The notes under the pieces were generated by a model. That model was given only the letters and a program-made list of their open reading frames with translations. It was not told where the DNA came from and ran no database searches. From the IMG/VR virus record IMGVR_UViG_3300034280_000607, positions 5,338-69,337 of that record: 64,000 nt of DNA; one strand, given 5' to 3'. The position numbers and the translations under genes are program-made. How positions within the stretch are numbered: the stretch's first letter is position 1; every line of letters begins with the position of its first letter. Source of the DNA: a virus. Of this stretch, positions 12,401-44,568 are shown in pieces.

Positions 12401-12943
12401 AGCATATTCGACCTCATTTTTTTCCAGTTGTTTGCTAAGCTCCGGATCTAGCTTGGGATCATAAATATCTGCAATACCTAAAGCTTCAGGAAGACTCTTC
12501 CAAGTTTCCACTATTGTGTTAGCAAATTGAAGCTCATTAAAAGTCATTGCTTTAGAAGTATACATAGCTTTTACCAACTCAGCGTCTATACGAGCTAGTT
12601 CCAATACAAAGTCTAGCTGCTGGTCGGCATTGGTTTCCAATAAAGCTTTGATAGAGTCAGAAGTTCTGCTAATGATACCATTATAGTAAGCAGTTTTTTT
12701 AAGCTTTACGTCTTTAGAATCTTTACTGTTCTTAATAGCCTGAATAACGTCTTCAGCCTGCTTCTTTCTTTGGTAAAGTACAGTTAATGTATCCTTTACA
12801 ATGTCAGACTGCTTCTGCTTTTTCTGTGTAGCTACTGACTTAAATATATCAACAGGATTCTGCTGGAACAAACCAGTAGCTATACCAGAAACCAGTTCTT
12901 CTTTTGTATACTCTTTACCGTTATATATGTATTTGCAAGCCAT
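9494..12943 (-). CDS. large internal virion (cargo/ejection) protein
   Basis: About 1149 aa; the likely start is ATG at 12943, in a TAATG overlap with the vRNAP stop. It is helical and lies directly downstream of the vRNAP, as in crAss-like phages. It has a late hydrophobic segment (IQIITTLWMSYLLLKAM) and a single Cys at residue 3. Confidence 0.7.
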   Translation of the reverse strand: MACKYIYNGKEYTKEELVSGIATGLFQQNPVDIFKSVATQKKQKQSDIVKDTLTVLYQRKKQAEDVIQAIKNSKDSKDVKLKKTAYYNGIISRTSDSIKALLETNADQQLDFVLELARIDAELVKAMYTSKAMTFNELQFANTIVETWKSLPEALGIADIYDPKLDPELSKQLEKNEVEYALLSRRSQAMAVELIKQVSNGKLSEDDITKLVDTTRLTEWTRELSTAGVALPNHLAYILKEINLKINKEHSKNYSIIDKMTQGIKDFSIFIKKQKNRDGVETLGIVTRYSQTFWDNLRSVNRKLRKDLKEAEGDKTKKSLAWKTYHAWNEKNTIAFNALLFINRDAYTDQQRDVEIARMKSMGFNQMEVNDIISQSFKLNERFENRKEEYAYEIMSEAAADPSIIPQGMTYDQYVKNKVEEFDDMNNPLKYMNQKFFGEKITAYGGARYTYLIPVKTLGGKDSGYYDENFAKIAADPKLYEFYTWFTKFISDNLTWLPQEEIEDLGSNFLPIIADRLAKEYGFTSLKESVNGIGEWFVNALTVSGFEEKTAVNPFSRKELRNFKSRFITENVAVEERTTDLGLIAKLFSDMALIYKHKNTVKAEVDTINDIIQNTKGSYKFDKKLNTLVRQDKDATSIQSLADFTVRKGFYGLKSEDSLWQSDELFYDWKEIIPLLGYKSAKAKEAQKLSEDIKKFNEVLETNDTLSDEDRKTIIDARDAKIQQYYKLGGRKFSLTKAIDSGINNTRLTALGFAPFSAIRNLLVGKVNNRIHASGGRDFGKKELMWANKMLTGATANYWSRGKYDTNFTRKLAGLLSDSAMVEGVDGMYLRTLADKKTPLNKFREMIPKAYTWLSGGDYHFKAEMMLSAMKREQVKTSKGDVSFWDVLNEERDYDEAIYGSWNADANEGLSFEDFFNKKILKYRQLANKLHGATGNDIFVKGRDNAIGRLLFLFKSWLPETIGVRWDPRHKDALLDRDEEGYYRTFLRLAGEKKLAVIGMMFDAMMGRRLDIQDEMVLANFKKAVKEIQIITTLWMSYLLLKAMAPDDDKDKKIYNLLVLRQLHDLNRDLTYYISINSVSELQREAFPIIRTMRNWGSAAKAVTYYGFGVEKEDGELDYDAERTALKVTKVLPILSNINRIEYYKKQID

Positions 12944-21900: not shown

Positions 21901-24747
21901 GTTTCCATTCTCTTGTTTAATTATACCGTTAGCCAAAAATTCGTTAATCTGCTGCTCACTAGACTGTTTCATATCTTCCAGAATAGCTTCACCCACTATA
22001 GTGCTATATTTGGCATTAATCTGGTCTAGGTTCATCTGACCGCTATACAGATCATTACGGAACTCTTGTAAAACACTATTAACATTTAAGGAAGGAATAA
22101 AATAAAATAGTCTGCCTGCTAGATCAAAGTTCTCTAGCTTAACATCTTTACTGTGCTTAATAGTAGCCAGTATACGGCTAATCTCAGGTGCTGCAAATGC
22201 AGTGTATGCTCTTTCAGTAAGACCAGATGAATATTGCAGTTCACCTTGTTCGTTCAAGAAGTAGTCACGACCTTTACCCAAAGGCTGGTCATCATTATCT
22301 ATAAAGAACTCCTTAGTCATCTTGGTCTCAATAGTAGTGGTCTTATCAGACAATGTAAAGTTGATATAAGTAGCAACATTGAGGTTCTCCTGATGCTTGA
22401 GCAGCATAGTAACTGTCTGCTCTTTATCTGTAAGAGACTTTCTCACCTTACCGTCTTTACCAGCTTCCTGTTCACGGATACCGTTAAAGTACTGAGGAAT
22501 AAAAGTGCTAATTCCTTTCTTTACACTTTCCCAAAATGATTTATTAGGACGTCCCAGTGCACTGTTAGTAACAGAAACAGTTTGCCCAAGCTTCCACTGA
22601 CGTTTCTTATTTTCAATATAGTTAGGAAGTATGTATAGATACTTCTGTTTACCATCTGCTGTTTGTGCAGAGGGAATCTTGTACTTACCAGGATTTGCTT
22701 CATAGTAGAGGATAGCCAGCTTACGCATAGAACCTTTCTCATCCTGAAAACCATAATTGTCTTCAAACACTAATTCTGCATTATCTGCATAAGACTTGTA
22801 GATATTATCTAATAGATTGTTCTTGGCAAAGATGACATCAAAATCATTGCCTTTACTAAGAGCTTTAGCTATCCGGGGTGTGATATAATCCAGTTCTTTA
22901 TCTGTAAACTCAATACCCAGTGTAGCAAAGAACTCTTTAAACTTAACCACCTTGTCTTTACCTACAGCAGTCTTACCTTCTTCTATCAACTTGGCAAGTT
23001 TTTCTATTTTAGCAAGATTAGGTTTTAGTTCATTCAGTGCAGAACGCTTGAAGAATTCTGATTGCTTGTGCACTTCCAACCAATCACGGGATATTTGGTC
23101 TTCTACTGTATCACGATTTGAGTTGATCACCTTTACATCAGTGATACCAGTTACCTGATTTCCATCCTTACGGGTTTTATATAAAAGCAAGGTCTCTTGA
23201 GCAAAAGCTTTAGTAGCAAAGGTTAAAATGTCATTGATCTTGTCCCACTCATTGTTTTTTTCAAAACGGTTAAGCTTAGTTAGAAAATCATTCAGGTAAG
23301 GTCTTGCATCTGAACGCTTGTATAAACTAGCCTTAAAAGCATTCAGTTTACCTGCAGTATCAGTAAATCCAGTAAGAGCCATTTCACTACCTGCATACAA
23401 GATATCAGCAAACACATCATTAGAATCTGCATATATAGGAATACCAAGCTCATACTCACCGGTCTTGATAGTTTGTACCAAAGCTTTTACACGTACAGAA
23501 GCCGTGTCTCGAGGGTTTGTTTCAAATACACTACGATCAAAACGTTCACCTACTTCTTCCTGTGAGATTTCAACATCCTCATTATTATCTACTTCTTGAT
23601 TAGCTACATCCTGAGAATCTATTGTCTGTATAGCGTTCTTAACCATCCGGATACCTTTCCGAGCAAGTTCAGCTACAACAGCATCCTTGTATTTGTCAAA
23701 GTTGTTTACAATCGTATCATATGTTTCTGCAGCTTTAACCATGTCTTCATAATTATTGACATATGCAAGTACTGGAAACTCATTCAAAATATCATTATAA
23801 GACGATGAAGCTTTTACATCTGCCAAGTCTTGGTCAGAATTGATGATTCCATTAAGAGCCATCTTTAGGTTATCTGCTACTTCTGAGTAGATACCTTTCA
23901 CTGTACGAAATGCTTCAGCTGGTGTAATGTCTAGCTTTTTATTAGGAGCAATATCACCTAGAGTGTTAATCACGCTAGCCATAATATGAGAAGTATACTT
24001 CAGATCATTCTGAGAACGGATTAGATCTTTGTTAATGCCAGCTGCAATCTGTTCTGTAGACTTTGTCCTAATAGAACGGAACAAAACTCCTCCCTGATTA
24101 ACAGGATTTTGAGCTACATACCTTTTAAAACTCTCCTGGTCTTGCTTACTGCCCAGTATGAGAATCTGCTCAGGTTCAAATACAGCAACCGTACTTCCTT
24201 CTTTCTGTCCGGCATCTATACCTATTACAGCATCATAGTTTCCACCCTGGGTTTTAATAATTCTAGGATTAGTGTACTCATCTGTATTATGTACTTCTTC
24301 AGGAACGTCTGCAAGTTCTGAGGGAGAATTATAAGGTTTCTGAACGTTGACAACAGCAGATATAACTTTTCTCTTTATGAGGAAACCAAAAGTTTCAGCG
24401 TAGCTTTTAGCTGTGGTAAAGTAGGTAACATATCCTTTGAACTTACCATCTGCAGGTAATAAGTGTTCCATTGCACCATGGTACATTACATCTTTGACCT
24501 TACTATCCGGAAAGATAGTATTTACATATGCATTATACTGGTCTAAGTTACCAATATCAGAAAGCTCTTTTGAACCATTAAATACCTCAGCTACCCCAGG
24601 TTTTACTAAAGATCTATCTGCTACTACTTGATAGTTATCAGCACTGGGGATCTTTCCATAAATCAAAAACTCTTTCCAAGCACGGTTTTCACCGACCTTA
24701 GCAACCAAAGCTTTCCACTCCGGACTGGTAATGTTAGGACAAATCAT
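12943..24747 (-). CDS. virion-packaged RNA polymerase (crAss-like, double-psi beta-barrel), polyvalent fusion with ART-like, SLOG-like, macro-like, NADAR-like, RecD/Dda-like SF1B helicase and zincin peptidase domains
   Basis: Catalytic GSDFDVDKL (DFDVD at 20131-20145) is preceded by RIPNQ. Helicase motifs: GYAGTGKT (15268-15291), DEASM, GDPKQI, YGITVHKSQG, YVGMSRA. Zincin motif HELMH at 13471-13485. Confidence 0.88.
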   Translation of the reverse strand: MICPNITSPEWKALVAKVGENRAWKEFLIYGKIPSADNYQVVADRSLVKPGVAEVFNGSKELSDIGNLDQYNAYVNTIFPDSKVKDVMYHGAMEHLLPADGKFKGYVTYFTTAKSYAETFGFLIKRKVISAVVNVQKPYNSPSELADVPEEVHNTDEYTNPRIIKTQGGNYDAVIGIDAGQKEGSTVAVFEPEQILILGSKQDQESFKRYVAQNPVNQGGVLFRSIRTKSTEQIAAGINKDLIRSQNDLKYTSHIMASVINTLGDIAPNKKLDITPAEAFRTVKGIYSEVADNLKMALNGIINSDQDLADVKASSSYNDILNEFPVLAYVNNYEDMVKAAETYDTIVNNFDKYKDAVVAELARKGIRMVKNAIQTIDSQDVANQEVDNNEDVEISQEEVGERFDRSVFETNPRDTASVRVKALVQTIKTGEYELGIPIYADSNDVFADILYAGSEMALTGFTDTAGKLNAFKASLYKRSDARPYLNDFLTKLNRFEKNNEWDKINDILTFATKAFAQETLLLYKTRKDGNQVTGITDVKVINSNRDTVEDQISRDWLEVHKQSEFFKRSALNELKPNLAKIEKLAKLIEEGKTAVGKDKVVKFKEFFATLGIEFTDKELDYITPRIAKALSKGNDFDVIFAKNNLLDNIYKSYADNAELVFEDNYGFQDEKGSMRKLAILYYEANPGKYKIPSAQTADGKQKYLYILPNYIENKKRQWKLGQTVSVTNSALGRPNKSFWESVKKGISTFIPQYFNGIREQEAGKDGKVRKSLTDKEQTVTMLLKHQENLNVATYINFTLSDKTTTIETKMTKEFFIDNDDQPLGKGRDYFLNEQGELQYSSGLTERAYTAFAAPEISRILATIKHSKDVKLENFDLAGRLFYFIPSLNVNSVLQEFRNDLYSGQMNLDQINAKYSTIVGEAILEDMKQSSEQQINEFLANGIIKQENGNFSFPTSINGFKNTDYINRLRQSGLKGRDLARLMMMDMKLNYINTQVKMIQFLRFDPALAFKSFKDFNKASKFNEISGEDKVKLVSSTWDEFSKRAAALIAPGAQGSYSWKMKNGESYSSSNYQAFTAADVEYKIGDTENTITDAQEYITLNEHIDNLMSEGKISLEIWQLIYDKIQKAGPGGYYELSDKELGYVFTPTKPVHVNDVDEATADAGLNRIDYVKSSRYPLIPQHEAGSERDKLRQWMEQNGIQAVNFASAKKLGRPIKSVALFNENGSEFIEPSKDDLAAARQTLSRDGLRTQQEIPHQKDEIRTVSQMNRTLFDNMLNETFSLKGIKEMSGTQAKSLKELVRSRLFDLQVQQLQKELGDLNRSHRGLHRLLKDVIINDTTGSYGENDLKSIELDEKTGKFLMPLEQQFKLKKFQGLINSMINKNVMLKVEGSSFVQVSGVGAKYNFSNLAKGVKSGIIWTDSYAKSFKDGDVKLNYIRKEGDEVKPAQVIVSQYLRDANGKLVDLSKYITEEKVGNTTVKILNTSKMPAELFQLVGTRIPNQSHPSMLPIEVVGFLPAYMENTIIVPDGITGQMGSDFDVDKLYAYATKFNYKDNTIEKLGANQEEYTELVAAAKKIAKAAGEQADDKGIYSNFNNYLAQAVKNKYGNNEVPKFKVERPSTFELVNYKLDSTEDVENMNEEQLGQLYRDIHWMVLTHPAAYDKITKSIDMPEVKRKVAEREVELEKYGITSDKDVMLPLDFITSINRFNDNRSGKVGVGVFANLISAQADFQDKVLRLGMVVDDLEKENPIKIKLSKKGKVIDLLYLGQPGSSNSFIGKTRNISENLNMMFTESVDNAKNQFLREFNWEEKAMSAIGVFEMLTDADGNAAPIEFVMDLTSQGAIKHLFTLMDQKQDSFGEYDSNAMETAMLEIQSKIAERLMKQGYFGSMAEVEQYLEDQDRDQALDPETLEDMWLIGKAIEAGALSQYNFVNQIEQKEQLSYKDPESGIEYNEKLNAETILEKIAKDKGYSSVRNMMLKYNTVQYDSLNLFKRMEDIGRELNTILGSVYTYTKGIGPNVFATRQKLNQLNKLSGSTNFIGLSNIAGTVQRNKDTGMLEIQAQGEIGASIKHSLMVAQEMYNILFPISSGKNIESIVDILMANQGKNKEELGKNSYINLYDTVFNGIKAYMYTMPELELFQNARGMRAQMINGESSLGKRIVNLAKDPEFKSNGFLKNIEVKQAPRQKAYTIGIRALFGSDIDEKGIISGFYELATSDKEEIRQLAKDLAIYPFLTSDAGNIGRFIPVDYYFSDEDFKKVIGVIDSAYSMHMDDPGAMESLVLQIVQNNPEQFAKSFKYSTYSGFTGAKDNVFKRVVKKLVGKEELKDVNTFTIKIGDFEADSKGKNIADSLKVPLSNSESKSLKEQGSTVNFKYPPYILINDTFTSEFVEAGSRNVNYLYKRVSPIGDPSGAATYERINILGYNGIKEYDFNNPELVSAIEGNNNVEDDAAFQETVPPVAPVQQQPAVSGSNNPAEFINHSGGAALSDTEWDQIGREFGVVKHNHYREPGAKELDSSKLRAAGVKPVNISDTDYAEGTQKATAAFRMMYTDSANKTVRSNYIIRNWAQVKYADAVYALGTIKQPGENASDKAGDNRIAAIPLVKGGTGYAVQMAINEGKPVYVFDGTKQGWYKYDYDAKNFVLTETPTLTKNFAGIGSRTLSTPEVIEKSLQAIRNVYAKTFSQAETTKLKTYTGKIESLQPNQVFVFGSNTEGRHGAGSAKTAKEKFGAKYGQAWGAQGQSFAIITKDLTKEKHPSRTKAQIIYQVQRLYDHANRNSDKEFMVAYSATGKNLNGYSAQEMADMFSSAEIPSNIVFEEGFSKLLNKQDAPVSQGVEISSNSKGLAAALTNPTELAKQKGNLTQSYPVTFDGVTYKDAEEAYQKNKGKYKPEGLGKGSTYDLMVQILEAKLKQHPRLVEEITKIGGQEWLSNATHQPTNKNTVWETGGLNLFINALQEAYYGVIEDAEILAEQNEEQEVIKAPQEDQELFTKVTYGGRNFILEENAGSFDVFYANNNGAKGALVKDKGLFMKVQLTHAAILYPEKVVTIQIGSKENRYYVAFDNRIYSLQPSSYADLITSDDVTRRVMQQMNTPIQEKQVQQEESTTTFNYNGITVPTEFQLSIEQADALKKIIDFVEARTSGDGTFDGTYTLEGYAGTGKTSIIGILDRYMGQKSRATKFLYMAPTHAATVALGNNIVKYGAKELPMTVQASVTESRDPRKPGPKFTKKLTDRATGIKNVIVLDEASMLANKDFEKLVAAAKAEGFKIIFMGDPKQIPEVMPGVKTKELAKAFANPNKSELTTVFRTKDNNILTVLTNIRNNSDFVEYEFENSDNMKQLSRSEYNEELIDDLKNNLEDITIINYTNDGVAKINKAARQVLGYSGPLKPGEKIVGYGGSQTKQIEKGHLANSVSYMVQDVTVRDEGSVVITSTSKALEDLQKAGMKGFPTSASFSYLQLSANDSLDFELTPQQMLNNKKELADKLRKIHELNELYQRKGISYSNYLVEVQTIRMQLAEINTGNRYIFNPAINDVELYDKDKHKGINANLEIDKGVDFGYGITVHKSQGMTIPIVYFDTSSLSVVTNTVITRNGVKFNTEKNALYYVGMSRAAKKLVVPKNIVATDFTYNEFTDGVSVDEAPEVEVFNPLELLISHQKDEAVEIFTTELFGKEKQVTDYKGFLNNLFKVTSPLNKAIITAISKTGSIEQVTFKIDMSQADPGTYNRATRTITINPKAAIVDATDIEDMKAKIHEVIMHELMHHLTVDMLMADQATLSPEQRKWVKAINNLFDQVQIKMLEDPEHSASLLMAMSQMNTDGFLSAKDKSLYYGLTSVYDFVTMMMTDKSFQQFMNTIEVQGDKTVLDRFIDLLMNIIKSLGIQVKDRSALDEGLRNIIGLIGSRTETVQKSIATENVNRSYIEQNFDTIINVLNIKTNC

Positions 24748-33312: not shown

Positions 33313-36174
33313 TTAAAAAGGATAAACATCTGAGCCAATTAATCCACCCATTTTTCTATTAAGCATATTTAATCCACCTATGTTATTCATATTAAAAGGT
33401 GTTAAATAATTATCAGGTACTCCTCTTCTAGAAAATGTTGCTCTATCAGGATAACCATCCATATCATTATCCATATAAGAAGTAGTTCCTCTTCCACCTG
33501 AAAAAACTTGATCAGCCTTTCGTTCAGCAAGTGACTCACTATAACCTTCTTGCATAAACTTATTCTTTAAATCACGAAAAGAATTAGTAGCTGCATCTGC
33601 ACTTTGACTGCCTTGTTTGCCTAAATTATATCCTCTTTTAGTAAAATAGGACTTACCTGTAAAAGGATCAATTCTATACATAGGATTTACAGCATTGATT
33701 AAACCTAAGTTCATTCTATTATTAAAAGCCATAGCAAACTTATCACCTATATTAGTTCTATATTTAGCCAACGCATTATCAAACTGTTGATTAGAAATAA
33801 CTCCAGCATCATAAAGATCATTAGCTCTTTGCATAGCTAATAGATTTTCTTTACCCAAAATATCAGCATTAATACCCGCAAACTGATTAGCTACACCTAC
33901 ATTTTGGTTTTGAACTCTACCTATAGTGTTAGCAACTCCTTCACCTAAACTTCCTTGAAGTTTGGAAACATTTGCCATATATGCTTGTGGATTACCTATT
34001 AAAGCAGCACTTTGTGCAAACATATTGGCGGCTTCATTTTGTGCAGCTATTTCTCTATTAGGGTCATAGAAAGTAGGTTTAACTTTTGGTAAATTTACTG
34101 GTGCCTTATATGGAAGATATTTTTTTGGTTTGTTTATAGCAGCAATTCCTAAATTAATAACATCTGGAAGCATATAACCAAAAGGAGGTTCTTCATTATT
34201 GTATAAAGGTTTTTCTCCAGGAGGAGTATAAGAAGGTTTATCTTTAGCAGTAGATTGACAACTTGCAGCAGCTTCTTCCTTTGTAGAAAATGCACCTGCT
34301 GCAGATCTTGCTTGTTCATCTTTAAAAGAAGACGATACTATAACAGGTGAGTTTGAATTATCTAAACCTTGACATATAAAACCTAATACAGGTTGTGAAG
34401 TAACTGCTGTAGCTTGAGTAGGTTCAATATCAGGTGCACTAAAGGTGTATTCACCAAATTTATCATCATAAGCTCTAAAACTATTTTTTTCAGAAAAGTA
34501 TGGTTTCATCCCTTTTTTTACACGTTCAGCATCATACCATCTTTGAAATTTCTGAGTCGCTCTTTTCACTCTAGGATTCCATCCTGGATTTTCTGAAATA
34601 AACTTTTTTTGACGTTTTACAAAGTCAGCCATGTTCTCTACACTGGTCCAATCTTCATCACCATATACACCGGTTTTACCTTTTATAGTATTCTGCATAG
34701 AAGGTAAAGTAAATCTTTGAGCATCATTAGCAAGATCTCTAGCATTAATAGGAATATTTACAGTGTATTTTTGTTTTAAATATTCTTCAAGAAGCTTTCT
34801 TTGTTCATCATCCCAAACAGGCACGCGATTATTAGAAACAGTACTTGAACCTTTACTTCCTTGAAACTTTGGAAGAGCACCTCCATATTTGGCTTGATCT
34901 AATCCAGCTTCATTCTCATCTTCTAAAAGACCTTGTGACACAGAAGGCACACCTTGTGGAAATCCTTTCATAGATTCTTGAACCATTGCTAAATATTCTA
35001 ATTTCTTTTGATAGTTTTCTATCATTCTATTAGCAGTGTTTAATAAAATATCATCACTTGTAGGATCTTCTAAAATTGCTATATATTTATTTACATCATA
35101 TTTTTTAGCAATTTCAGCAGGTGTATAACCACCTTTTTTTTCTGGCATTCCAAAATAACTAAGTATTTCAGGATCTTTGATTTTCATTTTCTGTGTGTCA
35201 GAAAAAATAAAGGTTCCTTCAGGTACATTAAGAGGCACACCGCCTTTTGAATGTCTTGGACCTACAATTTTTTTATGAAGTTTTTTACCATCGTTATTTA
35301 GATCACCATAAATAGTTTCACCACCTTCAGCTTCAATATTAGCTTCATTTCTAGGTACAGCAGATATAGTATTACTATATGATTCTGATTTTGTAGAAGG
35401 CATGTCAGTATATATATCACGAGATCCTAGATCAAGTCCACTTCCTGACTGACCACCGTATGCCATTGAAGGCTGTTTTGTAATACGTATTTTCATAATT
35501 TCTTGATTTTCACCTCCATATTGAGCAAACATTCCTTTATTAACAACATAGTCATTAGGTCTAAATTCTCCAAAACGAGATCCTGTAGTTACATAATCTC
35601 CATCAGATCCTTCTACAGCATTAAAAAGAGCATCTGAGTTCATTTGATTTCTTTTCCATTTTGAAAAGTCAGTATCTCTTTTTTTACGATTAATATCATC
35701 CATAATAGAAGAACCTAAAATAGAAGCACCTTTAATTACATCACCTAGTTTTTGAAAATCAGCTATGTAATTACGTTTAACATCAGGTTTTGGTATTTTA
35801 AAATCTGAAATGGTAGGTGCATCATTTGCTGTTTTATAAAACGTTTTAGATTCACCAAAGTTTCCAAATTGTTCTTTACTACCATCTGCATTAACAACTT
35901 CATATCTAGGAGTTGGTGCAACTCCTGTGTTAAAGTTTTTCCATACATAAGATCCTCCCATATCAGGAAGAGGTCCTTTATTCTCTTTGTCAGTGGCAGG
36001 GATAGATGTACTAGCATTTGGCACAGTACCCATGTCAAAACCTTTATATGGCCATATATCATTAGACCAATTAGAAGCTGTTGGTAAATTAAAGTTACCA
36101 ACTGAATTAGGAGGATATTGACTATTTTGCCACTGTGCTTTAGGCAATCCTTTTTTAGTAATACGTATTTTCAT
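33313..36174 (-). CDS. internal virion (cargo) protein with xxGG linkers
   Basis: 953 aa with an EAEGGET...HSKGGVPL domain, a duplicated MKIRITK start, and AQYGG, MAYGG, AKYGG and RKMGG motifs. Confidence 0.65.
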   Translation of the reverse strand: MKIRITKKGLPKAQWQNSQYPPNSVGNFNLPTASNWSNDIWPYKGFDMGTVPNASTSIPATDKENKGPLPDMGGSYVWKNFNTGVAPTPRYEVVNADGSKEQFGNFGESKTFYKTANDAPTISDFKIPKPDVKRNYIADFQKLGDVIKGASILGSSIMDDINRKKRDTDFSKWKRNQMNSDALFNAVEGSDGDYVTTGSRFGEFRPNDYVVNKGMFAQYGGENQEIMKIRITKQPSMAYGGQSGSGLDLGSRDIYTDMPSTKSESYSNTISAVPRNEANIEAEGGETIYGDLNNDGKKLHKKIVGPRHSKGGVPLNVPEGTFIFSDTQKMKIKDPEILSYFGMPEKKGGYTPAEIAKKYDVNKYIAILEDPTSDDILLNTANRMIENYQKKLEYLAMVQESMKGFPQGVPSVSQGLLEDENEAGLDQAKYGGALPKFQGSKGSSTVSNNRVPVWDDEQRKLLEEYLKQKYTVNIPINARDLANDAQRFTLPSMQNTIKGKTGVYGDEDWTSVENMADFVKRQKKFISENPGWNPRVKRATQKFQRWYDAERVKKGMKPYFSEKNSFRAYDDKFGEYTFSAPDIEPTQATAVTSQPVLGFICQGLDNSNSPVIVSSSFKDEQARSAAGAFSTKEEAAASCQSTAKDKPSYTPPGEKPLYNNEEPPFGYMLPDVINLGIAAINKPKKYLPYKAPVNLPKVKPTFYDPNREIAAQNEAANMFAQSAALIGNPQAYMANVSKLQGSLGEGVANTIGRVQNQNVGVANQFAGINADILGKENLLAMQRANDLYDAGVISNQQFDNALAKYRTNIGDKFAMAFNNRMNLGLINAVNPMYRIDPFTGKSYFTKRGYNLGKQGSQSADAATNSFRDLKNKFMQEGYSESLAERKADQVFSGGRGTTSYMDNDMDGYPDRATFSRRGVPDNYLTPFNMNNIGGLNMLNRKMGGLIGSDVYPF

Positions 36175-36178
36175 AATA

Positions 36179-39100
36179 TTAAATTATTTCAAATTCATAA
36201 CCTTGTTGACGTAACATCTCAGCTTGTTCAGGTGTCACTTCCATTTCTGCACCATTTACTAAACCTCCAGTTTGATAATTAGATCTTTCATACAAATCAT
36301 TTATATTTGCTTGTGCTCTTTTATTAAACTTATTCCAAGGCATTGTTGTACCTGGTTTCATTTTAGTACCTATTCCCATTATAATCTCTTCTTCTTCAGC
36401 GGCATCTTGCAAAAGCTTAGCCAACTTTTTATCTGTTTTAGCAGCTTGAGCTAATTTATTCATATCATATTTATATTGTGCCGCAACTTTTCTAACAGAA
36501 GGCATAAATTTATTAGCTCCACTAAACAAGTTTTCTAATGTAAGTTCTTCAAACATAGGATTACCTATATTTCTAGACATAGGATTTAAAGACTTCATAC
36601 GTATCAATCTACCAAATGCAGGAAGTTTATTAACTAATCTATTTGCATATGGTATCATTGATGCTCCAGTTATCAAAGCATCACGAGCATCTCCTTTACC
36701 TGTTAAAATTTTTCCAGAACTTGATGCAAATGCTAAAGCAGGTTCTGCAATTAAATTATTAAAAGCCCATGCTCCAATAGCACCTAATGGATTATTAGGA
36801 TTATCTCTTAATGACATAGCAGCAGCATCAGATCCATACGCTCCTGTATTCAATTTATTCTGCATAACCTCAAACATGTTTGGCTTATAATCATCAGCTT
36901 TATCAACAATCATGTTTGCATTTGGATTAGCTGATTTGTATACATTTGTAGCATATGTAAAAAAATCATTATTTGCTTCTTTATCAGAAGGATTTACAGA
37001 AGGATTTGCAGAAGAACTTCTAGATTTTTTACTAGGAAAACTTTTAAATTCTTTAGTATATGGCTTACTTGAAAGCATACTTAAAAGTTGCATATTTTGA
37101 TCAGATGTTCCTATGTAGTTTTTAATTCCTTTTTCAGAAGCAATTTGTTTACGTGTATTAAAATCAGAAGCAAGTCCCATGCTATTTAAATAATCAACTA
37201 TACTTACACCTTTATAATTATTTGATTTTTTAGAAGGCTTTTCTTGAACAGGAAGTCTAACATCTAATGGTCTACCCTGAAAACTTTGAGGTGCTGGATA
37301 TAATTCAGATAGAGAAGGATCAGACGTATATAAATCCATATTATCTACTCCAGATTGTTGATAAGCAAGTAAAGCTTGTCTCCAAGAATTATAATCTGGA
37401 TAATCCTCTAATTGAGGTTGACCACCATTTTGATAGAATGCATTACCACTAAATGTAGACCCACCCTTTTTATATTCTCCTTTACGTATTTTTTTCCATC
37501 TATCTTTTTGATATTCATCTAAACGTTGTAATTCTAATTGAGCCCCTGTAAGACTCTGATTACCATATGTAGGAAATAACTCACTATTTGGTGTTAATCC
37601 TATTTTTTCACCTGCTCGTGCTATTTTACTGTACACATATGCTGGCATATCAACATTTAGTTTATCCCACATAAGTTTAGGACTAGATTTAATAATGTTC
37701 CAAAGTTGTTCTTCTGAACTGGGATAATCACTTCCAGGATAAAAAGCAGAAATTGGTTTAGATGCTACATATGTATTATCAACAAGTGCTTTATTTCCAC
37801 CTTTTTGCATTTCCACCAGACCACCTTCTTGCCAAGTCTTTCTAGCAAACGCTCTAAAGAAAGGGTTATTCTCTAAGTTCTTTTTATGACGAGCATAGAA
37901 AGCTGCTTTACGTTTTGGGTCTTTAGGATGCTGACCTAACTTAGAATCACCAAAGTATTTAACAGTTCCATCAGGACCAGTCACTTTATGTGTTTTACCT
38001 TTACGATCATTACTTCTTGTAACAACGTATCCACCGTTAGCCATCATATCTTCCATATCCTCTTCTTCCATTTCTTCTCCATCACCTTGAGCTTCAGGGT
38101 TATACATCATATAATTAGTAATAGCATCAGCTGAATCATCCATAACTGCAAGTTTAGAAGCAATCCATGGATCTAAGTTTTTATCAGGAGATATAAACTG
38201 ACGAAGCTTGTTCATCTTATCTGAAACAGCCATCATTTGACCTAGTGCCATGCCACCATTAGGTTCACCACCTTCTTCCATCATTGGATTATAATATCCA
38301 CCATATCCCATGTTAGATAATATTTTAGCCTGTACATATTCAGGTAAGGCTTCAAATCCTGGGTTGTTTGTTCCTCCGTATTTCATTTCTTTAGATTTTA
38401 TTTTATGTTCTTGTTTTAGCATTTCTTTAGTAGGTTTCTTACCTGAGCCTTTATTAGCTCTAATGTTATCCCAGAGTCCTCTCTTAGAATAACTACCATC
38501 TTTGCGTTTAATCATTTCTCCACCATTTTTCATTATAGGATATTCATCTACATAAGATGCACCACTAAAATTATAGTCTTGTCCTGGATACATCATTTGT
38601 TTTTCACCATTAGAACCTACACCTAGTACAGGATAGGGTACACCTTGCATAGTTATATTAGGACTAGATATACGAGTTACTTTACCTGGATGTGCCCATT
38701 GTCCTCTATTGTCTTTTATTACACCACCATTTTTATTTTTTGATAGAAAAGACTTAAAACTCGAATGAATTGCAAGATCAGGAAACTTAATTTGATTTCT
38801 TTGTGCGTCAAAATATATGTTATCTAGTTCATTATCAACAAACATTTTTCTAAACTTTTCAACATCTAATTGATTTTTATAATCTAATCCATGATTTTTC
38901 ATAACACCTCTCATCTCATTACCAAAGCTTTTCCAGTCAGAATTTAAAAACCAACCATCAATAGGATATAAATCTTTACTATTAGCTATGAGTTCTTTTG
39001 CTTCATTTCTTATTCTAGGGTCAATATCATATCTTGGTAATCCATAAAATTCTCTTTGCTGTTTATAAGAGAGCCCACTGAGATAGTCTTTTAATTCGTC

Positions 39101-39760
39101 ATCTGTTAACTTATCTAAAAATCTTTTTTTAATATCACCTTCAGCTCCTAAATCTCCAAATCCTTCTCCAAGATTATAATATTTATTTCCACCACGTTGT
39201 GTGTATATTCCTAAATCATCTACCCCTTTGTTTGCCAAAGAATTGTATTTCAAAGAATTCTTTAAAGCTGTATTCTCTAAAGCATATTTACCTGCGGTTT
39301 TTAATCCTTTACCAACAAGCCCTGCTCCAGAAACAAGCATTTCAGCTTCAAATCCAGGAACAACAATATTATCCCATGTTCTTGCAGCTAGCTTACTATC
39401 TGCCATATCACCAAGAAGCCCTTGTGTATAATTACCTTGTTCATCAGAATATCCTCCATGCGTAGCTGCATATTGTTTAGCAAACTTATATCTTCTGGCT
39501 TCATCTAAATCTTTAACAGGAGTGTATTGAGAAACAGAGGGTTGACTTTCAATAATTCTTCTAGCCCTTTCTTGTTCTTGTCTTTTAGCTGTTGCTTCAG
39601 CTAAAACTCTTCTTTGAGGACTATCATTCATTCTAGCTATCTGAGGATAGTAAGATTGCATATCTCCTCTTGCTCTATTATTAGATTTGACTAATCCCAT
39701 CTGAGCTTTAGGAAGCATAGACATGTAAAACTGTTGTAATATAGAATCTGATCTTTTCAT
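36179..39760 (-). CDS. mosaic virion protein of mini-domains separated by xxGG linkers (includes a DUF3597-like domain)
   Basis: 1193 aa with about 11 [M/Y/W/N]xxGG motifs; SIVDYLNSMG...RKQIA...GIKNYIGTSDQN segment at about 37073-37213. Confidence 0.65.
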   Translation of the reverse strand: MKRSDSILQQFYMSMLPKAQMGLVKSNNRARGDMQSYYPQIARMNDSPQRRVLAEATAKRQEQERARRIIESQPSVSQYTPVKDLDEARRYKFAKQYAATHGGYSDEQGNYTQGLLGDMADSKLAARTWDNIVVPGFEAEMLVSGAGLVGKGLKTAGKYALENTALKNSLKYNSLANKGVDDLGIYTQRGGNKYYNLGEGFGDLGAEGDIKKRFLDKLTDDELKDYLSGLSYKQQREFYGLPRYDIDPRIRNEAKELIANSKDLYPIDGWFLNSDWKSFGNEMRGVMKNHGLDYKNQLDVEKFRKMFVDNELDNIYFDAQRNQIKFPDLAIHSSFKSFLSKNKNGGVIKDNRGQWAHPGKVTRISSPNITMQGVPYPVLGVGSNGEKQMMYPGQDYNFSGASYVDEYPIMKNGGEMIKRKDGSYSKRGLWDNIRANKGSGKKPTKEMLKQEHKIKSKEMKYGGTNNPGFEALPEYVQAKILSNMGYGGYYNPMMEEGGEPNGGMALGQMMAVSDKMNKLRQFISPDKNLDPWIASKLAVMDDSADAITNYMMYNPEAQGDGEEMEEEDMEDMMANGGYVVTRSNDRKGKTHKVTGPDGTVKYFGDSKLGQHPKDPKRKAAFYARHKKNLENNPFFRAFARKTWQEGGLVEMQKGGNKALVDNTYVASKPISAFYPGSDYPSSEEQLWNIIKSSPKLMWDKLNVDMPAYVYSKIARAGEKIGLTPNSELFPTYGNQSLTGAQLELQRLDEYQKDRWKKIRKGEYKKGGSTFSGNAFYQNGGQPQLEDYPDYNSWRQALLAYQQSGVDNMDLYTSDPSLSELYPAPQSFQGRPLDVRLPVQEKPSKKSNNYKGVSIVDYLNSMGLASDFNTRKQIASEKGIKNYIGTSDQNMQLLSMLSSKPYTKEFKSFPSKKSRSSSANPSVNPSDKEANNDFFTYATNVYKSANPNANMIVDKADDYKPNMFEVMQNKLNTGAYGSDAAAMSLRDNPNNPLGAIGAWAFNNLIAEPALAFASSSGKILTGKGDARDALITGASMIPYANRLVNKLPAFGRLIRMKSLNPMSRNIGNPMFEELTLENLFSGANKFMPSVRKVAAQYKYDMNKLAQAAKTDKKLAKLLQDAAEEEEIIMGIGTKMKPGTTMPWNKFNKRAQANINDLYERSNYQTGGLVNGAEMEVTPEQAEMLRQQGYEFEII

Positions 39761-42700
39761 TACCTCTGACTAAGTTGTATTTTCTGATTAGATATTTTAA
39801 ATAACATCTTTACATCATCACTCTTAAACTTTCTTAAAAACACTTTGTTTAAATTATGACGAAACTTCTTACGCTCTAATGGTGATTTTTGATAGTTTAC
39901 ATAAGCTGGATTGATTTTAAATTTATATCCATTAGATTCTGTAATGAACATTGGGATGTTTGTACTTGTAGTAAACTCTCCTCTATCTTTAGTAATATCC
40001 CAAAACTGATTAAACCGATATTTCTGTTCTTCTTTAGAATAGTTTATTCCTATAGACTGAGGTCTTATCTGAGGATAACTAAGCATTGCCACAGGGTTAG
40101 CTTTATTCTTAAGCTCTAGTTCTAAAAGTCCAGATACCTGTTCTGAGTTATAGACAATAGCCTGATCAAAATTTGCATCTAATACATGAAACTTATCTCT
40201 ACAATCATTGTGCATCTTGTAAGCTTCTAATATGTATTCTATGTTTCTCATAGATACAACTTGCTGACCGCTAGCTGATACAAATTCTATTTCAAAAGGA
40301 TAGTCTACACCATAGTAGTTAGAATACTTATCACACCTTATATTATGTTTCCAAATAGAGTTTTGGTTAACACTCATAAAATGAGCTTTACCAGGAATTA
40401 AAAAACTAGGTATCCAGTCATGAAAACTTATCCATGTTTGACTTTTAGGATCATAAGACATGGTCCAACTAGCATCTTCAAAATATGCAGTGTTAGTCAA
40501 AGGAATATAAACCTTACCATTAGAAGCACTCACTTCATAAAAACCTTTAGAGTCAAACAATAAGTTAGTCTTTAAAGGTTTATAATCTTTTTTGCTTACG
40601 TATATAATCTCATTAGTGTTATCATATATCATTTGTACACCTACAGCAATAACAGGATTATCAGCAAAAGGATAATCAGGATAAATTCTTAATAGTTCAC
40701 TTGGTAAATATTTAGCAAACCACCATTTAAGACCATCTCTTGATATTTCTTTAATTTGCCCTGCATACTGAAATATCTTACCTTGGTTTTGACTCACCCA
40801 GAAAACACCATGTGTACAACCTAATGTAGCAAGTTTATTTTGACAAGAACCATATTCATATGATTCATCTGAGTTAGTAATACTTTGTAAAGGTTGATTA
40901 AATAATCCACCATCTCCCACTGTAATTTTAGTACCAGCATCTGTCTGAAGTTGATCCACACCTAGAAATTGTAATGGACTTTGTCTAGACATCATAAACA
41001 GTGCCCCTGTCTTATTAATATTTTTAATAGATGTAATAGGTGAACCAAAATCTTTATAATTATTAGCTAAAAATACTCTCCAATTATCCTTAACTCCTTC
41101 AAGTTGTTGTGGAAGTGAGTATGCTACCCTAGTAGGATAGTAGGTAAAACATGTAGAAAACTTCTTAGGATCATAATATCTTGGAAGTAAATTACCGTAA
41201 GAAACATATTGATTAAATATTTTACTAACACTTAAAGAATAATCATACTTATAAAAGTTTCTACTCTTAATTATATCTGATCTAAAAAGAGATTTATAGT
41301 CAGAATAATTATAAGGATCATAGTGACGTTTTTCAACAAGTTCTTCCCAGTCTCTGAAAGCAAGATTCACTTCACTTTCTACAAAAAAATCTCTAACACC
41401 TGAATTAAATAAATAGAAATAACCTTTGCTAACAAAAAAAGTAGAACTATCTCTTTCATCTAAATGTCTATTATTACTCATATTACCAAATAACTTATAA
41501 GAAGGTCTCTCGGAATTTATCCAAAACCTAGGATAAGCTATGTTGATATAATTTCTATAATCATGTTCTGTTTCATCTGGCTCACCCATAAGCCAAGAGT
41601 TAAAAAAGAAAAATGAGTTCTTTTCTGTAAATCTGTTTATGTAAGTATCTCCATTAAATAAAACACTTGTTGACTGACTTTTTGCATCAGAAATAATAGA
41701 ATGTACACATGCGGAAACAGGAACTTGTTTTATCTGATCCAGTTGACCATATTGAGAAGAAAAAACAACTTTAATTGCACCATAGTGTCCAGATATTGTT
41801 GATTCTACTTCTTTATTTATTTTTTTACCGGGTACAGCAGAAAGTCTAAATCTTGAGTTGTCTATACTAATGGGATTATTCTTATCTCTTTCAATTTGAA
41901 TAGCTACATAACCTGATCTAAAAACATTATTTATATTATAATTTGAATTAAAGGACTGTATGTTAGAATCAACATAACTAGAATCATCTATACGAAATCT
42001 ACGGTCTCCTTCGTTTGTTATAATAGATTTATTATAATGTCCATGTGAATCATATTGTAAAGCATTCTGTCTTTTAGGAACCATTCCATAAATAACATTT
42101 AACATCTGTTCACCAACAGCTGTTGCTTCAACATAAGACATTGCAACACTAACTGTCAAATTATATGTTCCAATAATACTATTAGTTATAGCGATAACAG
42201 GATTGGGAACACTTGCACCTGAACCAAAAAGAGAAAAAGATACAGGATGATTGGTCATTTTAGCAAGTGTAAGTTGCTTTTCATAATTAAGCTTATCTGT
42301 TTTACCAAGTGTAATATTACCATTGTTTGCAATAGCAGATAGAACATTTCCAATAGAACTAATAACAGCAATAACACTAGAAAATATACCAGAAAAGTTA
42401 GTTAACGTTTTAAACTTTGGATGCTTATAAGGCTCAGAAAAAAGACCTCTAGACTTTCCGTAAATTTCTTGATATACCTTTAATTCAGACACACCTAAAA
42501 AAGGTCTAGTAAATGTAGTGTCAGGACTATGAAAAGATAGATGATCTTTTTTATATAATGTTAAAGGATATGCTAAATTAACACCATTTGAGTCACCACT
42601 TCTTCTAAGATCTTTACGAGCTGCTCTTAATTTTGCTTTTGCTTCTCTTCTTTGTCTACGTCTTAACTTTCTTTCTTGACGTCTACGCCTTCTTTCCGCT

Positions 42701-44568
42701 CTTTTACTATCATTGTCATCATCATCTTCTTCATCAAACTCATCTATTTCATCTATTTCATCATTATCCCTTTCTGCAGAGTCTAATAATTCATCTTGAG
42801 CATCATCACCAAGTGGGTTTACAACAGATCCTGCTTCAGGATCTATAATAGATAAATTACTTGTTAAGAAGGTATCAGCATCTAAATCATTATATGGATA
42901 GTTTTGATACAATCCTCTAGTACTACTTCCAGGTATATCATACTCTCTCAAGTTATTTAAAAGTCCTTTTGCAATAATACTTTTTTGACCTTCTCTACTT
43001 CCTCTTAGTATTTCATATCCCACTACAGAAGTTATAGGATTTCCAGATAGGTCTACAGGAATCTGTATATTACTAAATGATACACCTAATATTACAATAT
43101 TACTACCATCTGAGTTAAATATATTTAAAAGAGGAGAAACAGTTTCATCAGGCATTTTATGATGTCTAATATTTTTCCCGCAAAGACTATCCCAAATATC
43201 CGGTTTATTATCAGGATATTTTTCAGTGCTTTCCCAATATGCCATATTACCTGATGCTATAACTACACCACCATCTGAAAGTGTAGGTCCACCTATATTT
43301 TCAAGAGTGGCTGTATTTTGAACTTGCCATCTTTGCTTTTGTACACCATCTTTAGACTCATAAGCATCACTACTAAGATCTAATACTAGATCAGAAGCTA
43401 AAGCCTGTCTACCAGGTATATGATATGAGTCAGAACGTTCACCAGTATTATACACCCATCTTATAAAAAATGAATACTGTTCATCTCTTAAATAACCGGT
43501 GTTATTTCCTCCCTTGTAGTAATACTGTGCAGGATATTGTACAGCATTCCACTGCACTTTAATGTTATTAGCTAAAGGTTGATAATTAAATTTATACTTA
43601 GATCTTGTACCCACCTTAAGTAGATAATCATTAACTGTATACATAGAGTCAGATCTTTCAATAGGATCTGTTCTTAATAGCACTTGATTCAAAGGAATAG
43701 TAATAAGTTCAGGTCCAATTGTGTCTATGTATATTTTTCCTTGATTACTAGAATAAATACCTATTTTTTTAGCTACTGTTTGCTGATTAATAATAGAAAT
43801 GATTACTAATTCAAACTCATCAAAATTTTGGTCTACAGAACTCACTTCTATTTCTAAAGATCCATTAAGATTTTCATGAGACCATATAGGCTGCACTTCA
43901 GTGGTTCCCATATAATCAGTAACTCGTACACCATTTATAGTGTAAGCAATAAGTGCTTGATAAGAACCATTTGCTAGTGTACCGCTGCCAACTCCTTTTT
44001 TTATATTCAAACAGGGTTGAGCTATAAGTGGAGAAAGTCTAAGCTTTTCACAATCAAGTTGTAAAGGTTGTAAATATGTTTTTATAGCACATCCATCTTC
44101 AATAGTTTCAATATATTTAAAAGGAGGATTGCCTATATCCATAAATCTGTCTGGATTTAGTGCATCAACCCAATATACAGGTCTATCACAATCAAATCTT
44201 TTACGAGAAGCACCTGTAATTAAATTAGACCTTTTGAATCCTAAACATGGGTCATTTACCACCTTTGTATAAGTACACTGACTTTCGTCAAATATTCCTA
44301 TTTCTGAATCAACATCATCAGTAGTAAAAACAACCCATTGATCATCAGTAAGATGAATACAACCTATTAGTGTATATGGAAGTGTTACACAGTACAAGTT
44401 AGCAGGCTCATTACCTATTACACCAAGCTGACCATCATGTGAGTTATTTACAGCATTGCGAGCATGTGTATACAACCCTTCTCCTACAAATGTTTCATTG
44501 TAGTCTTTCACCATACCTTTGCTAAAAGTATTAGTAATTATACCAGGGTTTTGTGATTGCTCAGCCAT
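39760..44568 (-). CDS. tail stabilisation/muzzle protein (P22 gp10-like)
   Basis: 1602 aa; N-terminal NTFSKGMVKD...NAVN and beta-propeller-like aromatic repeats (WTMSYDP..WISFHDW). It lies between the ring genes and the cargo genes. Confidence 0.75.
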   Translation of the reverse strand: MAEQSQNPGIITNTFSKGMVKDYNETFVGEGLYTHARNAVNNSHDGQLGVIGNEPANLYCVTLPYTLIGCIHLTDDQWVVFTTDDVDSEIGIFDESQCTYTKVVNDPCLGFKRSNLITGASRKRFDCDRPVYWVDALNPDRFMDIGNPPFKYIETIEDGCAIKTYLQPLQLDCEKLRLSPLIAQPCLNIKKGVGSGTLANGSYQALIAYTINGVRVTDYMGTTEVQPIWSHENLNGSLEIEVSSVDQNFDEFELVIISIINQQTVAKKIGIYSSNQGKIYIDTIGPELITIPLNQVLLRTDPIERSDSMYTVNDYLLKVGTRSKYKFNYQPLANNIKVQWNAVQYPAQYYYKGGNNTGYLRDEQYSFFIRWVYNTGERSDSYHIPGRQALASDLVLDLSSDAYESKDGVQKQRWQVQNTATLENIGGPTLSDGGVVIASGNMAYWESTEKYPDNKPDIWDSLCGKNIRHHKMPDETVSPLLNIFNSDGSNIVILGVSFSNIQIPVDLSGNPITSVVGYEILRGSREGQKSIIAKGLLNNLREYDIPGSSTRGLYQNYPYNDLDADTFLTSNLSIIDPEAGSVVNPLGDDAQDELLDSAERDNDEIDEIDEFDEEDDDDNDSKRAERRRRRQERKLRRRQRREAKAKLRAARKDLRRSGDSNGVNLAYPLTLYKKDHLSFHSPDTTFTRPFLGVSELKVYQEIYGKSRGLFSEPYKHPKFKTLTNFSGIFSSVIAVISSIGNVLSAIANNGNITLGKTDKLNYEKQLTLAKMTNHPVSFSLFGSGASVPNPVIAITNSIIGTYNLTVSVAMSYVEATAVGEQMLNVIYGMVPKRQNALQYDSHGHYNKSIITNEGDRRFRIDDSSYVDSNIQSFNSNYNINNVFRSGYVAIQIERDKNNPISIDNSRFRLSAVPGKKINKEVESTISGHYGAIKVVFSSQYGQLDQIKQVPVSACVHSIISDAKSQSTSVLFNGDTYINRFTEKNSFFFFNSWLMGEPDETEHDYRNYINIAYPRFWINSERPSYKLFGNMSNNRHLDERDSSTFFVSKGYFYLFNSGVRDFFVESEVNLAFRDWEELVEKRHYDPYNYSDYKSLFRSDIIKSRNFYKYDYSLSVSKIFNQYVSYGNLLPRYYDPKKFSTCFTYYPTRVAYSLPQQLEGVKDNWRVFLANNYKDFGSPITSIKNINKTGALFMMSRQSPLQFLGVDQLQTDAGTKITVGDGGLFNQPLQSITNSDESYEYGSCQNKLATLGCTHGVFWVSQNQGKIFQYAGQIKEISRDGLKWWFAKYLPSELLRIYPDYPFADNPVIAVGVQMIYDNTNEIIYVSKKDYKPLKTNLLFDSKGFYEVSASNGKVYIPLTNTAYFEDASWTMSYDPKSQTWISFHDWIPSFLIPGKAHFMSVNQNSIWKHNIRCDKYSNYYGVDYPFEIEFVSASGQQVVSMRNIEYILEAYKMHNDCRDKFHVLDANFDQAIVYNSEQVSGLLELELKNKANPVAMLSYPQIRPQSIGINYSKEEQKYRFNQFWDITKDRGEFTTSTNIPMFITESNGYKFKINPAYVNYQKSPLERKKFRHNLNKVFLRKFKSDDVKMLFKISNQKIQLSQR

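Follow-up and report, generated by a model that had tools for sequence, protein, structure and literature searches.

Gly-Gly seams mark the borders of shuffled mini-modules in a putative cargo protein of a distant crass-like virus

Introduction

What does a short motif ending in Gly-Gly do in a very large viral protein that repeats it again and again between segments bearing no resemblance to one another? The question arises from the 64,000-nucleotide (nt) stretch analysed here (positions 5,338 to 69,337 of the IMG/VR virus record IMGVR_UViG_3300034280_000607; hereafter the window), which carries a block of very large genes on its minus strand. One of these encodes protein A (P0001; 1193 amino acids (aa), 36179..39760, minus strand), a modular protein seamed by Gly-Gly motifs, and the next encodes a second seamed protein, protein B (P0002; 953 aa, 33313..36174, minus strand). 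An original prediction, made from the sequence of the window, described A as unrelated mini-domains separated by repeated [M/Y/W]xxGG linkers and suggested that the motif was either a maturation-protease site of the adenovirus type or a packaging tag that also acts as a junction for module shuffling. Here we report that the motif, which we call a seam, borders the modules of A and coincides with the points at which relatives split or fuse their genes. Judged from gene order, A is the cargo-position protein of a distant crass-like virus. Our preferred reading, which we hold tentatively, is that it forms an uncut, hinged and threadable chain in the virion of a crAss-like phage.

The seam motif is enriched in A and conserved across its family

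Protein A contains 14 Gly-Gly (GG) dipeptides. All eleven listed in the original prediction were found where it had placed them, at residues 345/346, 413/414, 462/463, 487/488, 497/498, 576/577, 646/647, 654/655, 766/767, 779/780 and 1165/1166 (window positions 38723-38728, 38519, 38372, 38297, 38267, 38030, 37820, 37796, 37460, 37421 and 36263), and its cluster of ten sites within about 440 aa corresponds to ten sites in aa 345-780. Three further dipeptides are EPNGG (502/503), THGG (102/103) and QRGG (190/191). GG alone is mildly enriched (14 versus 8.8 in shuffled sequences, p=0.046). The expression [MYW]xxGG occurs ten times versus 0.96 in shuffles, and nine times versus 0.71 within aa 340-790, with none of 5000 shuffles reaching the observed count in either case; the motif frequency is far above what composition alone would give. 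This regular expression was picked after the data had been seen, and three controls agree with it. The four other large open reading frames (ORFs) of the gene module carry 0-1 such sites, and 252 other ORFs of 63 related viral loci, gathered by an alignment-based locus scan, show no preference for Met or an aromatic residue at position -3 of GG. In two near-complete relatives, the A and B genes carry 11 and 5 sites and 9, 5 and 5 sites, respectively, and other genes three at most.

The four motifs attributed to the gene after A (AQYGG, MAYGG, AKYGG and RKMGG) are all present in B, and LPKAQ is indeed found near both N-termini (A aa 16-20, B aa 10-14). The bulky residue in B lies mostly at -1, where [MYFW]GG occurs five times versus 0.95 expected (10 of 5000 shuffles reach this count), and the strict [MYW]xxGG is not enriched (1 versus 0.64). 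Family-wide, Met, Tyr, Trp or Phe occupies -3 in 1373 of 2204 GG dipeptides from 121 proteins. A position logo of these dipeptides gave Met 31 %, Tyr 18 %, Phe 9 % and Trp 5 % at -3 (63 % together), with additional preferences for Pro at -5, Ala or Gln at -2, and Glu or Tyr at +1, and few columns of the family alignment are invariant, those of GG being among them.

Sixteen different codon pairs encode the seam GG, indicating that the constraint acts at the protein level, and a DNA-level signal was rejected on this ground. The first Gly is encoded by GGT in 81 % of seams versus 61 % in the background, consistent with avoidance of GGAGG, and codon use at the second Gly matches the background, non-motif GG not being a separate control in this comparison. 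A Shine-Dalgarno or internal-start reading of the seam was abandoned, since position -3 can hold Tyr, Phe or Trp as well as Met. That the pattern is a functionless accident of composition or of a few duplicated units is scarcely credible: the mild enrichment of GG alone and the post hoc choice of the expression would allow it, but against these stand the shuffles that never reach ten sites, the 1373 motif sites in 121 proteins, the invariant GG columns, the use of many codon pairs rather than one DNA word, and flanking modules that are mutually unrelated.

Seams also occur where nothing precedes them. In 46 of 352 family proteins the first motif is complete within 12 aa of the start, and in 112 within 30 aa; examples with nothing before it are MYYQQGG, MMRKQYQEGG and MSWLEQYKQGG. 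None of the 352 proteins ends in a seam motif, the last module of a protein stopping short of it; GG comes next after 37 of 38 internal module-2 ends (KIK[SA]K), for instance, and is absent from eight proteins that end there. In some lineages (A1 genes, loci L051-L062) the seam is extended to W-L-x-K-Y-x-x-G-G, and proteins of these loci start with the extended form (MKKWLDKYAEGG, MSWLEQYKQGG) or end in its first half (...GGQTSWLNKYK).

Several of these features would suit a repeated short docking tag for the capsid inner face, portal, ring proteins or DNA, each module being packed via its own tag and shuffling being a by-product. The bulky residue is conserved at fixed spacing, the motif is present in 9-18 copies per protein, it is found at N-termini and it is restricted to cargo-position genes. 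We nevertheless regard a docking tag as distinctly improbable, as it is without a known partner, the seams are predicted to be disordered (see below), the motif is dropped when a module comes last, and gp45, the cargo protein 1 of phage crAss001, shows no significant enrichment (3 versus 1.34 sites, a count reached by 745 of 5000 shuffles).

Seams border distinct modules that have been shuffled

At an expect value (E) of <=1e-3, the family includes 536 members of comparable length and 3635 that are shorter. Homologue coverage of A is patchy; about 110 of 119 homologues share a core at aa 461-645. When the segments between seams were clustered by single linkage they merged into one giant cluster, and the modules of A were mapped on 280 family proteins instead, which revealed 70 module orders including permutations and duplications. 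GG or a terminus stood at the start of module 2 in 78 of 78 occurrences (and at its end in 77 of 78), of module 3 in 164 of 164, of module 6 in 133 of 133 and of the C-terminal tail in 127 of 129. In all-against-all BLAST comparisons, 22 % of alignment ends fell exactly on the second Gly, and 55 % of ends and 40 % of starts lay within 5 aa of a seam, compared with 12 % for random positions.

An AlphaFold2 model of A aa 335-800 (44-row alignment) had a mean predicted local distance difference test score (pLDDT) of 57 and contained two confident mini-domains, aa 364-409 and aa 579-644. Ten of the eleven seams fell in stretches of pLDDT <50 between folded modules; ten were also coil according to DSSP, with helices ending 1-3 aa before GG at five of the eleven. 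A Foldseek search of this model against the PDB returned nothing at E<=1e-3. Taken with the module mapping, the model bears out the description of A as a chain of distinct mini-modules; the alignment ends, GG-flanked modules and disordered seams agree with the claim that the motifs bracket them, and the comparison of module orders upholds the proposed role of the motif as a junction for shuffling.

The modules of A differ in composition and in distribution (all coordinates on the minus strand). Its N-terminal part, aa 1-345 (38726..39760), has a leader ending in LPKAQMG (aa 16-22) and is lineage-specific: about 8-24 of 119 homologues cover it (about 10 for the first 340 aa), and relatives usually encode it as a separate upstream gene, A1. 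In a library copy of A (P0004) the start lies 12 codons downstream, but the longer N-terminus is conserved in locus L003. Module 1 (aa 346-414, 38519..38725; GQWAHPG...) is a predicted beta-rich mini-domain with pLDDT 85-91 over aa 364-409, present in 101 of the 280 family proteins and without a Pfam or PHROG match. The basic module 2 (aa 415-463, 38372..38518; ...RGLWDNIRANKGSGKKP...) is present in 78. Module 3, found in 144, shares aa 464-503 (38252..38371) with short seam units, the sequence reading NNPGFEALPEYVQ...MGYGG / YYNPMMEEGG / EPNGG with pLDDT <50 over aa 484-503. Module 5 (aa 504-577, 38030..38251; MALGQ...DPWIASKL...) has an acidic end and many invariant alignment columns and occurs in 154 proteins, and module 6 (aa 578-647, 37820..38029; KGKTHKV...FGD...FYARH), a predicted basic beta/alpha mini-domain with pLDDT 80-89 over aa 579-644 and a weak match to phrog_7595 (E 0.0012), occurs in 133. 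The region aa 648-780 (37421..37819) comprises the seam unit LVEMQKGG, the rare module 7 (aa 656-767; 2 of 280 proteins) and module 8 (STFSGNAFYQNGG; 93 of 280). It is followed by a long seam-free segment, aa 781-1166 (36263..37420), within which approximately aa 840-900 (37061-37240) form a LysM-like, DUF3597-type cell-wall-binding domain that matches PF12200 under the curated cut-off (E 3.6e-5) as well as phrog_2307 and endolysin PHROGs. The C-terminal tail, aa 1167-1193 (36182..36262; LVNGAEMEVTPEQAEMLRQQGYEFEII), stands immediately after the last seam.

When each module was searched separately against Pfam and PHROGs, only the LysM-like/DUF3597 region and the weak phrog_7595 match were returned, and Pfam recognised no enzyme domain in A, either in the whole protein or per module. 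A tblastn search for A relatives in 50,697 GenBank phage records likewise gave only LysM-like matches, to Bacillus phage endolysins. YkuD L,D-transpeptidase domains are found in some A relatives and a Phage_lysozyme domain (E 8.7e-17) in one B-type protein; together with the LysM-like domain of A, these point to cell-wall action during entry.

Genes are split and fused at seams, with paired tails and heads at the breaks

Seams coincide with the points at which relatives split or fuse the A and B genes, an observation new to this study. A is a single gene here and in six loci, and two ORFs in 44 of the 63 loci, where a long A1 with few motifs precedes a short A2 with 9-16 motifs; some split forms begin A2 or A1 with module 1, which corresponds to the NKNGG seam position of the window protein. 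B is two ORFs (B1 and B2) in 20 loci and is present in the window in its fused form, as in loci including L003, L005, L006, L008-L010, L013, L019, L020, L037, L040, L041, L047, L049, L053, L056 and L060-L062. The head of B (aa 1-14, 36133..36174, minus strand; MKIRITKKGLPKAQ) has M1, P11, K12 and Q14 conserved in >=90 % of 41 sequences. An internal second head (aa 227-241, 35452..35496, minus strand; MKIRITKQPSMAYGG) corresponds to the start of B2 in split relatives. Among 20 non-redundant fused forms of B, the tail is missing at the junction, which reads bulky-x-x-GG, 5-12 residues, Met and KIRIT. Most of these 20 proteins keep the Met directly or one residue before the internal KIRIT head, and this residue could be the relic of a former start codon or an internal start that is still used.

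The tail is a conserved element of about 27 aa, identified by a strict pattern in 95 of 120 A homologues, and 265 of 265 local hidden Markov model hits to it end within 3 aa of the C-terminus. Its profile matched 770 cluster representatives at E<=1e-3 in a library of 1.84 billion proteins; among the 150 matches listed, 146 cover the tail part, and about 140 of these reach the C-terminus. Five distant proteins (P0315, P0322, P0334, P0348 and P0319) carry the tail internally, between GG seams and with no head after it, suggesting that the tail is itself a shufflable module.

Wherever a gene in the 63 loci ends in a tail, the next gene, at a distance of -1 to 23 nt, starts with a basic, strand-like head (MKIRITGKGLPKAQ, MKTYKVRIKK...). 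Non-redundant adjacent gene pairs comprised 61 with both tail and head, three with a tail only, none with a head only and 287 with neither, and all three tail-only pairs were due to spurious nested ORFs. Two types were apparent. GYxFEII-type tails preceded LPKAQ-type heads in 40 of 40 pairs (type 1), mostly -1 to 5 nt apart, and GGxVEFL-type tails preceded KVRIKK-type heads in 21 of 21 pairs (type 2), 10-21 nt apart, six of these tails belonging to carriers that resemble A instead of B1. No chain among the fused B forms or the distant proteins with internal tails contained a tail with a head after it.

Tails and heads are thus associated, and we infer that they may bind one another. Complex prediction for the A tail (64 aa) with the B head (60 aa) scored 0.15 in both runs, relative to a mark of 0.32 and without control runs. 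An unrelated system offers a parallel. Modular polyketide and non-ribosomal peptide synthases carry C- and N-terminal docking domains that pair split assembly lines. In both cases short matched C- and N-terminal elements lie at gene splits, a covalent link takes their place when the genes are fused, and the types co-vary; the two systems share no sequence relation, and the binding of tail to head described here is putative.

Genomic setting points to a distant crass-like virus

The 69-kb viral record containing the window was judged 53 % complete. Within the window, the block of minus-strand genes includes CrAss_Ring_2 (tail ring protein 2, 45786-46460) and CrAss_Ring_1 (tail ring protein 1, 44923-45789), both above the curated Pfam cut-offs (for the region 44923-46460, 48.2 bits to PF24228 and 77.8 bits to PF25702, with a cut-off of 27 for each). 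A gene of 119 aa on the same strand separates CrAss_Ring_1 from the gene for a 1602-aa protein (39760..44568, minus strand) that lies directly upstream of A in the muzzle position, in conserved synteny. This protein matched phrog_37948 (virion structural protein, E 5e-64) and had neither a Pfam match nor a PDB sequence match. Its stop codon and the start codon of A share one base (window 39758-39762), and B starts 4 nt past the stop codon of A. ORFs of 838, 1989, 3934 and 1151 aa, also on the minus strand, follow B in gene order. An SbcD-like DNA repair exonuclease gene (47109-48425, minus strand; phrog_704, E 9e-51) lies amid the tail and virion genes.

The order Ring2, Ring1, muzzle-sized gene, A, B and next gene is kept in nearly all of the 63 related loci; a locus scan with protein A alone as the query returned no relatives. 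We assign A to the cargo position of a distant crassvirus because its gene directly follows two tail-ring genes and a muzzle-sized gene. A crAss-type major capsid protein is absent from the window and from its 53 %-complete record, and the Crass_capsid family PF23898 is present (E 4.8e-31) in G001, a syntenic relative of 126.6 kb that is 97 % complete. Three other genes of G001, at L066:7898-9010, L067:8577-8873 and L067:6756-7430, specify a tyrosine integrase (Bacteroidota-type arm-binding and SAM-like domains), a Tad2-like protein of the Thoeris anti-defence kind and a protein with a match (E 2.8e-7) to the C-terminus of arginine-tRNA-protein transferase.

Comparison with crAss001 cargo proteins and polyvalent proteins

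The closest positional counterparts of A and B are the crAss001 cargo proteins C1 (gp45; PDB 7qog chain M) and C2 (gp46), whose genes also directly follow the muzzle gene in a crAss-type tail module. According to Bayfield et al. (2023, PMC10172136), the crAss001 cargo proteins are, like A and B, large and mostly unstructured, with cargo protein 1 resolved at aa 214-245 in the tail barrel and at aa 425-552 on the portal, and the authors propose that a single chain of it runs across the portal and tail. That paper nowhere uses the words cleav*, proteol*, protease, scaffold or peptidase. Bands of crAss001 on sodium dodecyl sulphate-polyacrylamide gels, described as thirteen, lie at about 15, 35, 54, 58, 70, 77, 80, 85, 100, 150, 270 and >300 kDa (PMC6235969).

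SAYGG (209/210), AFGG (427/428) and FAYGG (562/563) flank the resolved pieces of gp45 in an x-[YF]-G-G pattern resembling the seams described here. A folded domain of B, aa 238-403 (34966..35463, minus strand), gave its best match, albeit a weak one, to the portal-bound domain of gp45 by both profile and fold. The AlphaFold2 model of B aa 226-420 was confident (mean pLDDT 82.8). With hhalign, the B family had a sole match in gp45, at aa 425-543 (E 0.015, probability 3 %), which begins at an aligned AYGG/AFGG, and 7qog_M ranked first for aa 238-403 in Foldseek (E 0.24). VIA-align superposed the two with Z 5.1 and a root-mean-square deviation of 4.3 over 93 aligned residues, the next row having Z 4.7. 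This domain of B is possibly homologous to the portal-bound domain, and since this is its best match, the counterpart of C1 may be B and not A.

There are also clear differences. BLASTP comparisons of A and B with gp45 gave E>=0.2, neither protein had a PDB sequence match, and Pfam crAss_CARG1 matched neither A nor B at E<=0.1 nor any of 19 B relatives at E<=1. In contrast to A, gp45 lacks significant motif enrichment and gp46 has no sites at all; in contrast to the A/B junction, the gp45/gp46 junction has neither tail nor head. The clade described here also differs from crAss001 in having two to four seamed genes and thousands of mosaic relatives.

A second point of comparison is the polyvalent proteins. 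As described by Iyer et al. (2017, PMC5512222), these are large multi-domain mosaics whose genes lie among those for virion proteins and which are thought to be co-delivered with DNA, as may hold for A; each has two to fifteen distinct domains, conflict-related enzymatic or nucleic-acid-binding ones among them. Precomputed Pfam annotations show that A relatives, like polyvalent proteins, carry ART-PolyVal, YkuD and DUF5872 domains (PF18760, PF03734 and PF19197), although the DUF5872 match of one relative falls in a module missing from A. A itself has many modules, of which only the LysM-like domain is recognisable, and it differs from polyvalent proteins in showing no recognisable enzyme domain and in being made of mini-modules of 25-110 aa. 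The text of PMC5512222 contains neither 'linker' nor 'glycine', and hence no seam rule.

A giant neighbour and the case for cleavage at the seams

The largest gene of the block encodes a 3934-aa protein (12943..24747, minus strand) with a PIF1/Dda-type helicase domain and, downstream of it, a C-terminal HELMH (HExxH motif) at aa 3755-3759. The HExxH is kept in 19 of 21 homologues and is invariant in a 14-sequence alignment. The surrounding region matched SprT-like (E 0.0069, 16.7 bits, cut-off 25.6) and Zincin_1 (E 0.018, 15.5 bits, cut-off 22.4) weakly, and in a protein atlas it matched only viral hypothetical clusters, one of which had LPD23 annotated on 18 % of members. AlkB (PF13532) and ART-PolyVal (PF18760) domains occur in relatives of the protein and, with the helicase domain, give the group a polyvalent-like repertoire. 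From its sequence, the protein looks like a polyvalent-type protein with a candidate zincin-like peptidase domain, and the conserved HExxH in a co-located giant cargo protein keeps alive a reading of the seam as a protease site.

On that reading, a phage enzyme that has escaped recognition, for which the zincin-like domain is one candidate, or else a host enzyme would cut the chain within GG or just behind it, either inside the head or once ejection has taken place, yielding about ten mini-proteins and removing short N-terminal leaders. Processing of packaged proteins at short motifs is known from adenovirus, African swine fever virus (ASFV), T4 and phiKZ. Adenovirus cuts at (M/I/L)XGG|X, ASFV polyproteins are also cut at GG, and the papain-like protease of coronaviruses and ubiquitin-like systems use LXGG. 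T4 and phiKZ cut at LxE and S/A/G-x-E, respectively, and both encode a recognisable prohead protease. The seams share with the adenovirus and ASFV sites a short GG-ending motif with an upstream bulky residue in packaged proteins, and the A family shares with the internal proteins of T4 and phiKZ short N-terminal leaders, repeated short sites and a probable packaged and ejected nature. Cleavage would also account for a motif whose specificity is site-like across about seven positions, which precedes modules even at N-termini, as a leader plus site would, and which separates modules unrelated in composition and fold. Iyer et al. (2017, PMC5512222) propose that packaged polyvalent proteins are processed by zincin-like peptidase domains.

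The analogy with adenovirus-type GG|X processing drawn in the original prediction was not supported, as the bulky residue lies two positions before GG rather than one, and no clan-CE protease was found by Pfam in G001. S78, C39 and other protease families were likewise not found by Pfam in this 97 %-complete relative, in which the only peptidase detected (E<=1e-3, 126 of 141 ORFs, those of >=75 aa) was the fibre chaperone Peptidase_S74, in a search that could miss a divergent enzyme. S78 was present in none of five near-complete relatives, and the seam also differs from the T4 and phiKZ motifs. The HExxH region falls under the Pfam cut-offs, none of the 352 family proteins ends in GG as a natural mimic of a cut product, and tail-head connectors lie exactly at gene splits. 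Three non-canonical GG dipeptides lie inside gp45 aa 425-552, a piece reported as resolved in PMC10172136. We therefore consider a protease site rather unlikely, if the strongest of the alternatives. A variant that combines ordered delivery with processing, in which one chain is threaded in gene order, delivered through the tail and then cut at each [M/Y/F/W]xxGG into about ten mini-proteins by either a host enzyme or the zincin-like domain of the 3934-aa protein packaged with it, is in our estimate a little less likely still. If true, it would describe a phage polyprotein system that injects a swappable cocktail of small effectors.

Discussion

The reading that we tentatively prefer, an intact hinged chain, would work as follows. 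A would be a virion cargo (ejection) protein organized as beads on a string, the beads being folded mini-modules, about 25-110 aa in length, plus a small number of longer segments, joined by the seam [M/Y/F/W]-[A/Q/K]-x-G-G. The seam would be a structural joint, its bulky residue closing a helix or turn and its Gly-Gly forming a hinge. The hinges would keep the modules independent, so that each could dock at its own site in the particle and the chain could thread the portal and tail one bead at a time, and the seam would be the sole place that tolerates module swaps, gene splits and gene fusions. Where the chain is split into genes, the acidic C-terminal tail and the basic MKIRIT-type head would act as matching connectors that keep the cargo proteins ordered, A then B. 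The presence of connectors only where the chain is broken suggests that continuity matters, which fits an intact chain better than cutting at every seam. The one structural precedent for such a chain comes from crAss001, with the seam-like GG motifs around the resolved pieces of its cargo protein 1.

Several points weigh against this interpretation. We infer packaging and ejection, the hinge function and the intactness of the chain, in the case of packaging solely from where the genes lie. Conservation of Met or an aromatic residue at -3, of Pro at -5, of Ala or Gln at -2 and of Glu or Tyr at +1 is more than a plain hinge would require, and a linker would be useless at extreme N-termini with nothing upstream; the specificity of the seam, its N-terminal copies and the diversity of the modules would fit a protease site or binding tag better. 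The zincin-like motif in the co-located giant makes a packaged peptidase possible. A and B have no significant match to gp45, gp46 or the Pfam crAss cargo families, the internal tails of the five distant proteins are not followed by heads, and shared descent of syntenic genes could produce much of the tail-head association. Probability left after the hinged chain, cleavage and the docking tag belongs to other readings or to mixtures.

Crassvirus cargo proteins and mosaic polyvalent proteins are already known. We found no description of the seam rule or of tail-head pairs in literature on Crassvirales cargo, virion proteolysis, DUF5872 or polyvalent proteins; the tail-head pairing and the conserved HExxH in the 3934-aa cargo protein are new here.

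Crassviruses rank among the most abundant phages known, and the findings bear on how these viruses store and eject several megadaltons of protein. The seam provides a sequence rule that marks module borders in thousands of cargo proteins, by which otherwise unannotatable proteins can be parsed into testable units. The same rule indicates the points at which these genes tolerate cutting and rejoining, knowledge that can help both to understand phage-delivered proteins and to engineer them in laboratory phage-host pairs. To judge from the tail-head pairs, separate cargo proteins may be coupled in the order of their genes and, if this is true, a model of ordered ejection would be directly testable with two short peptides.

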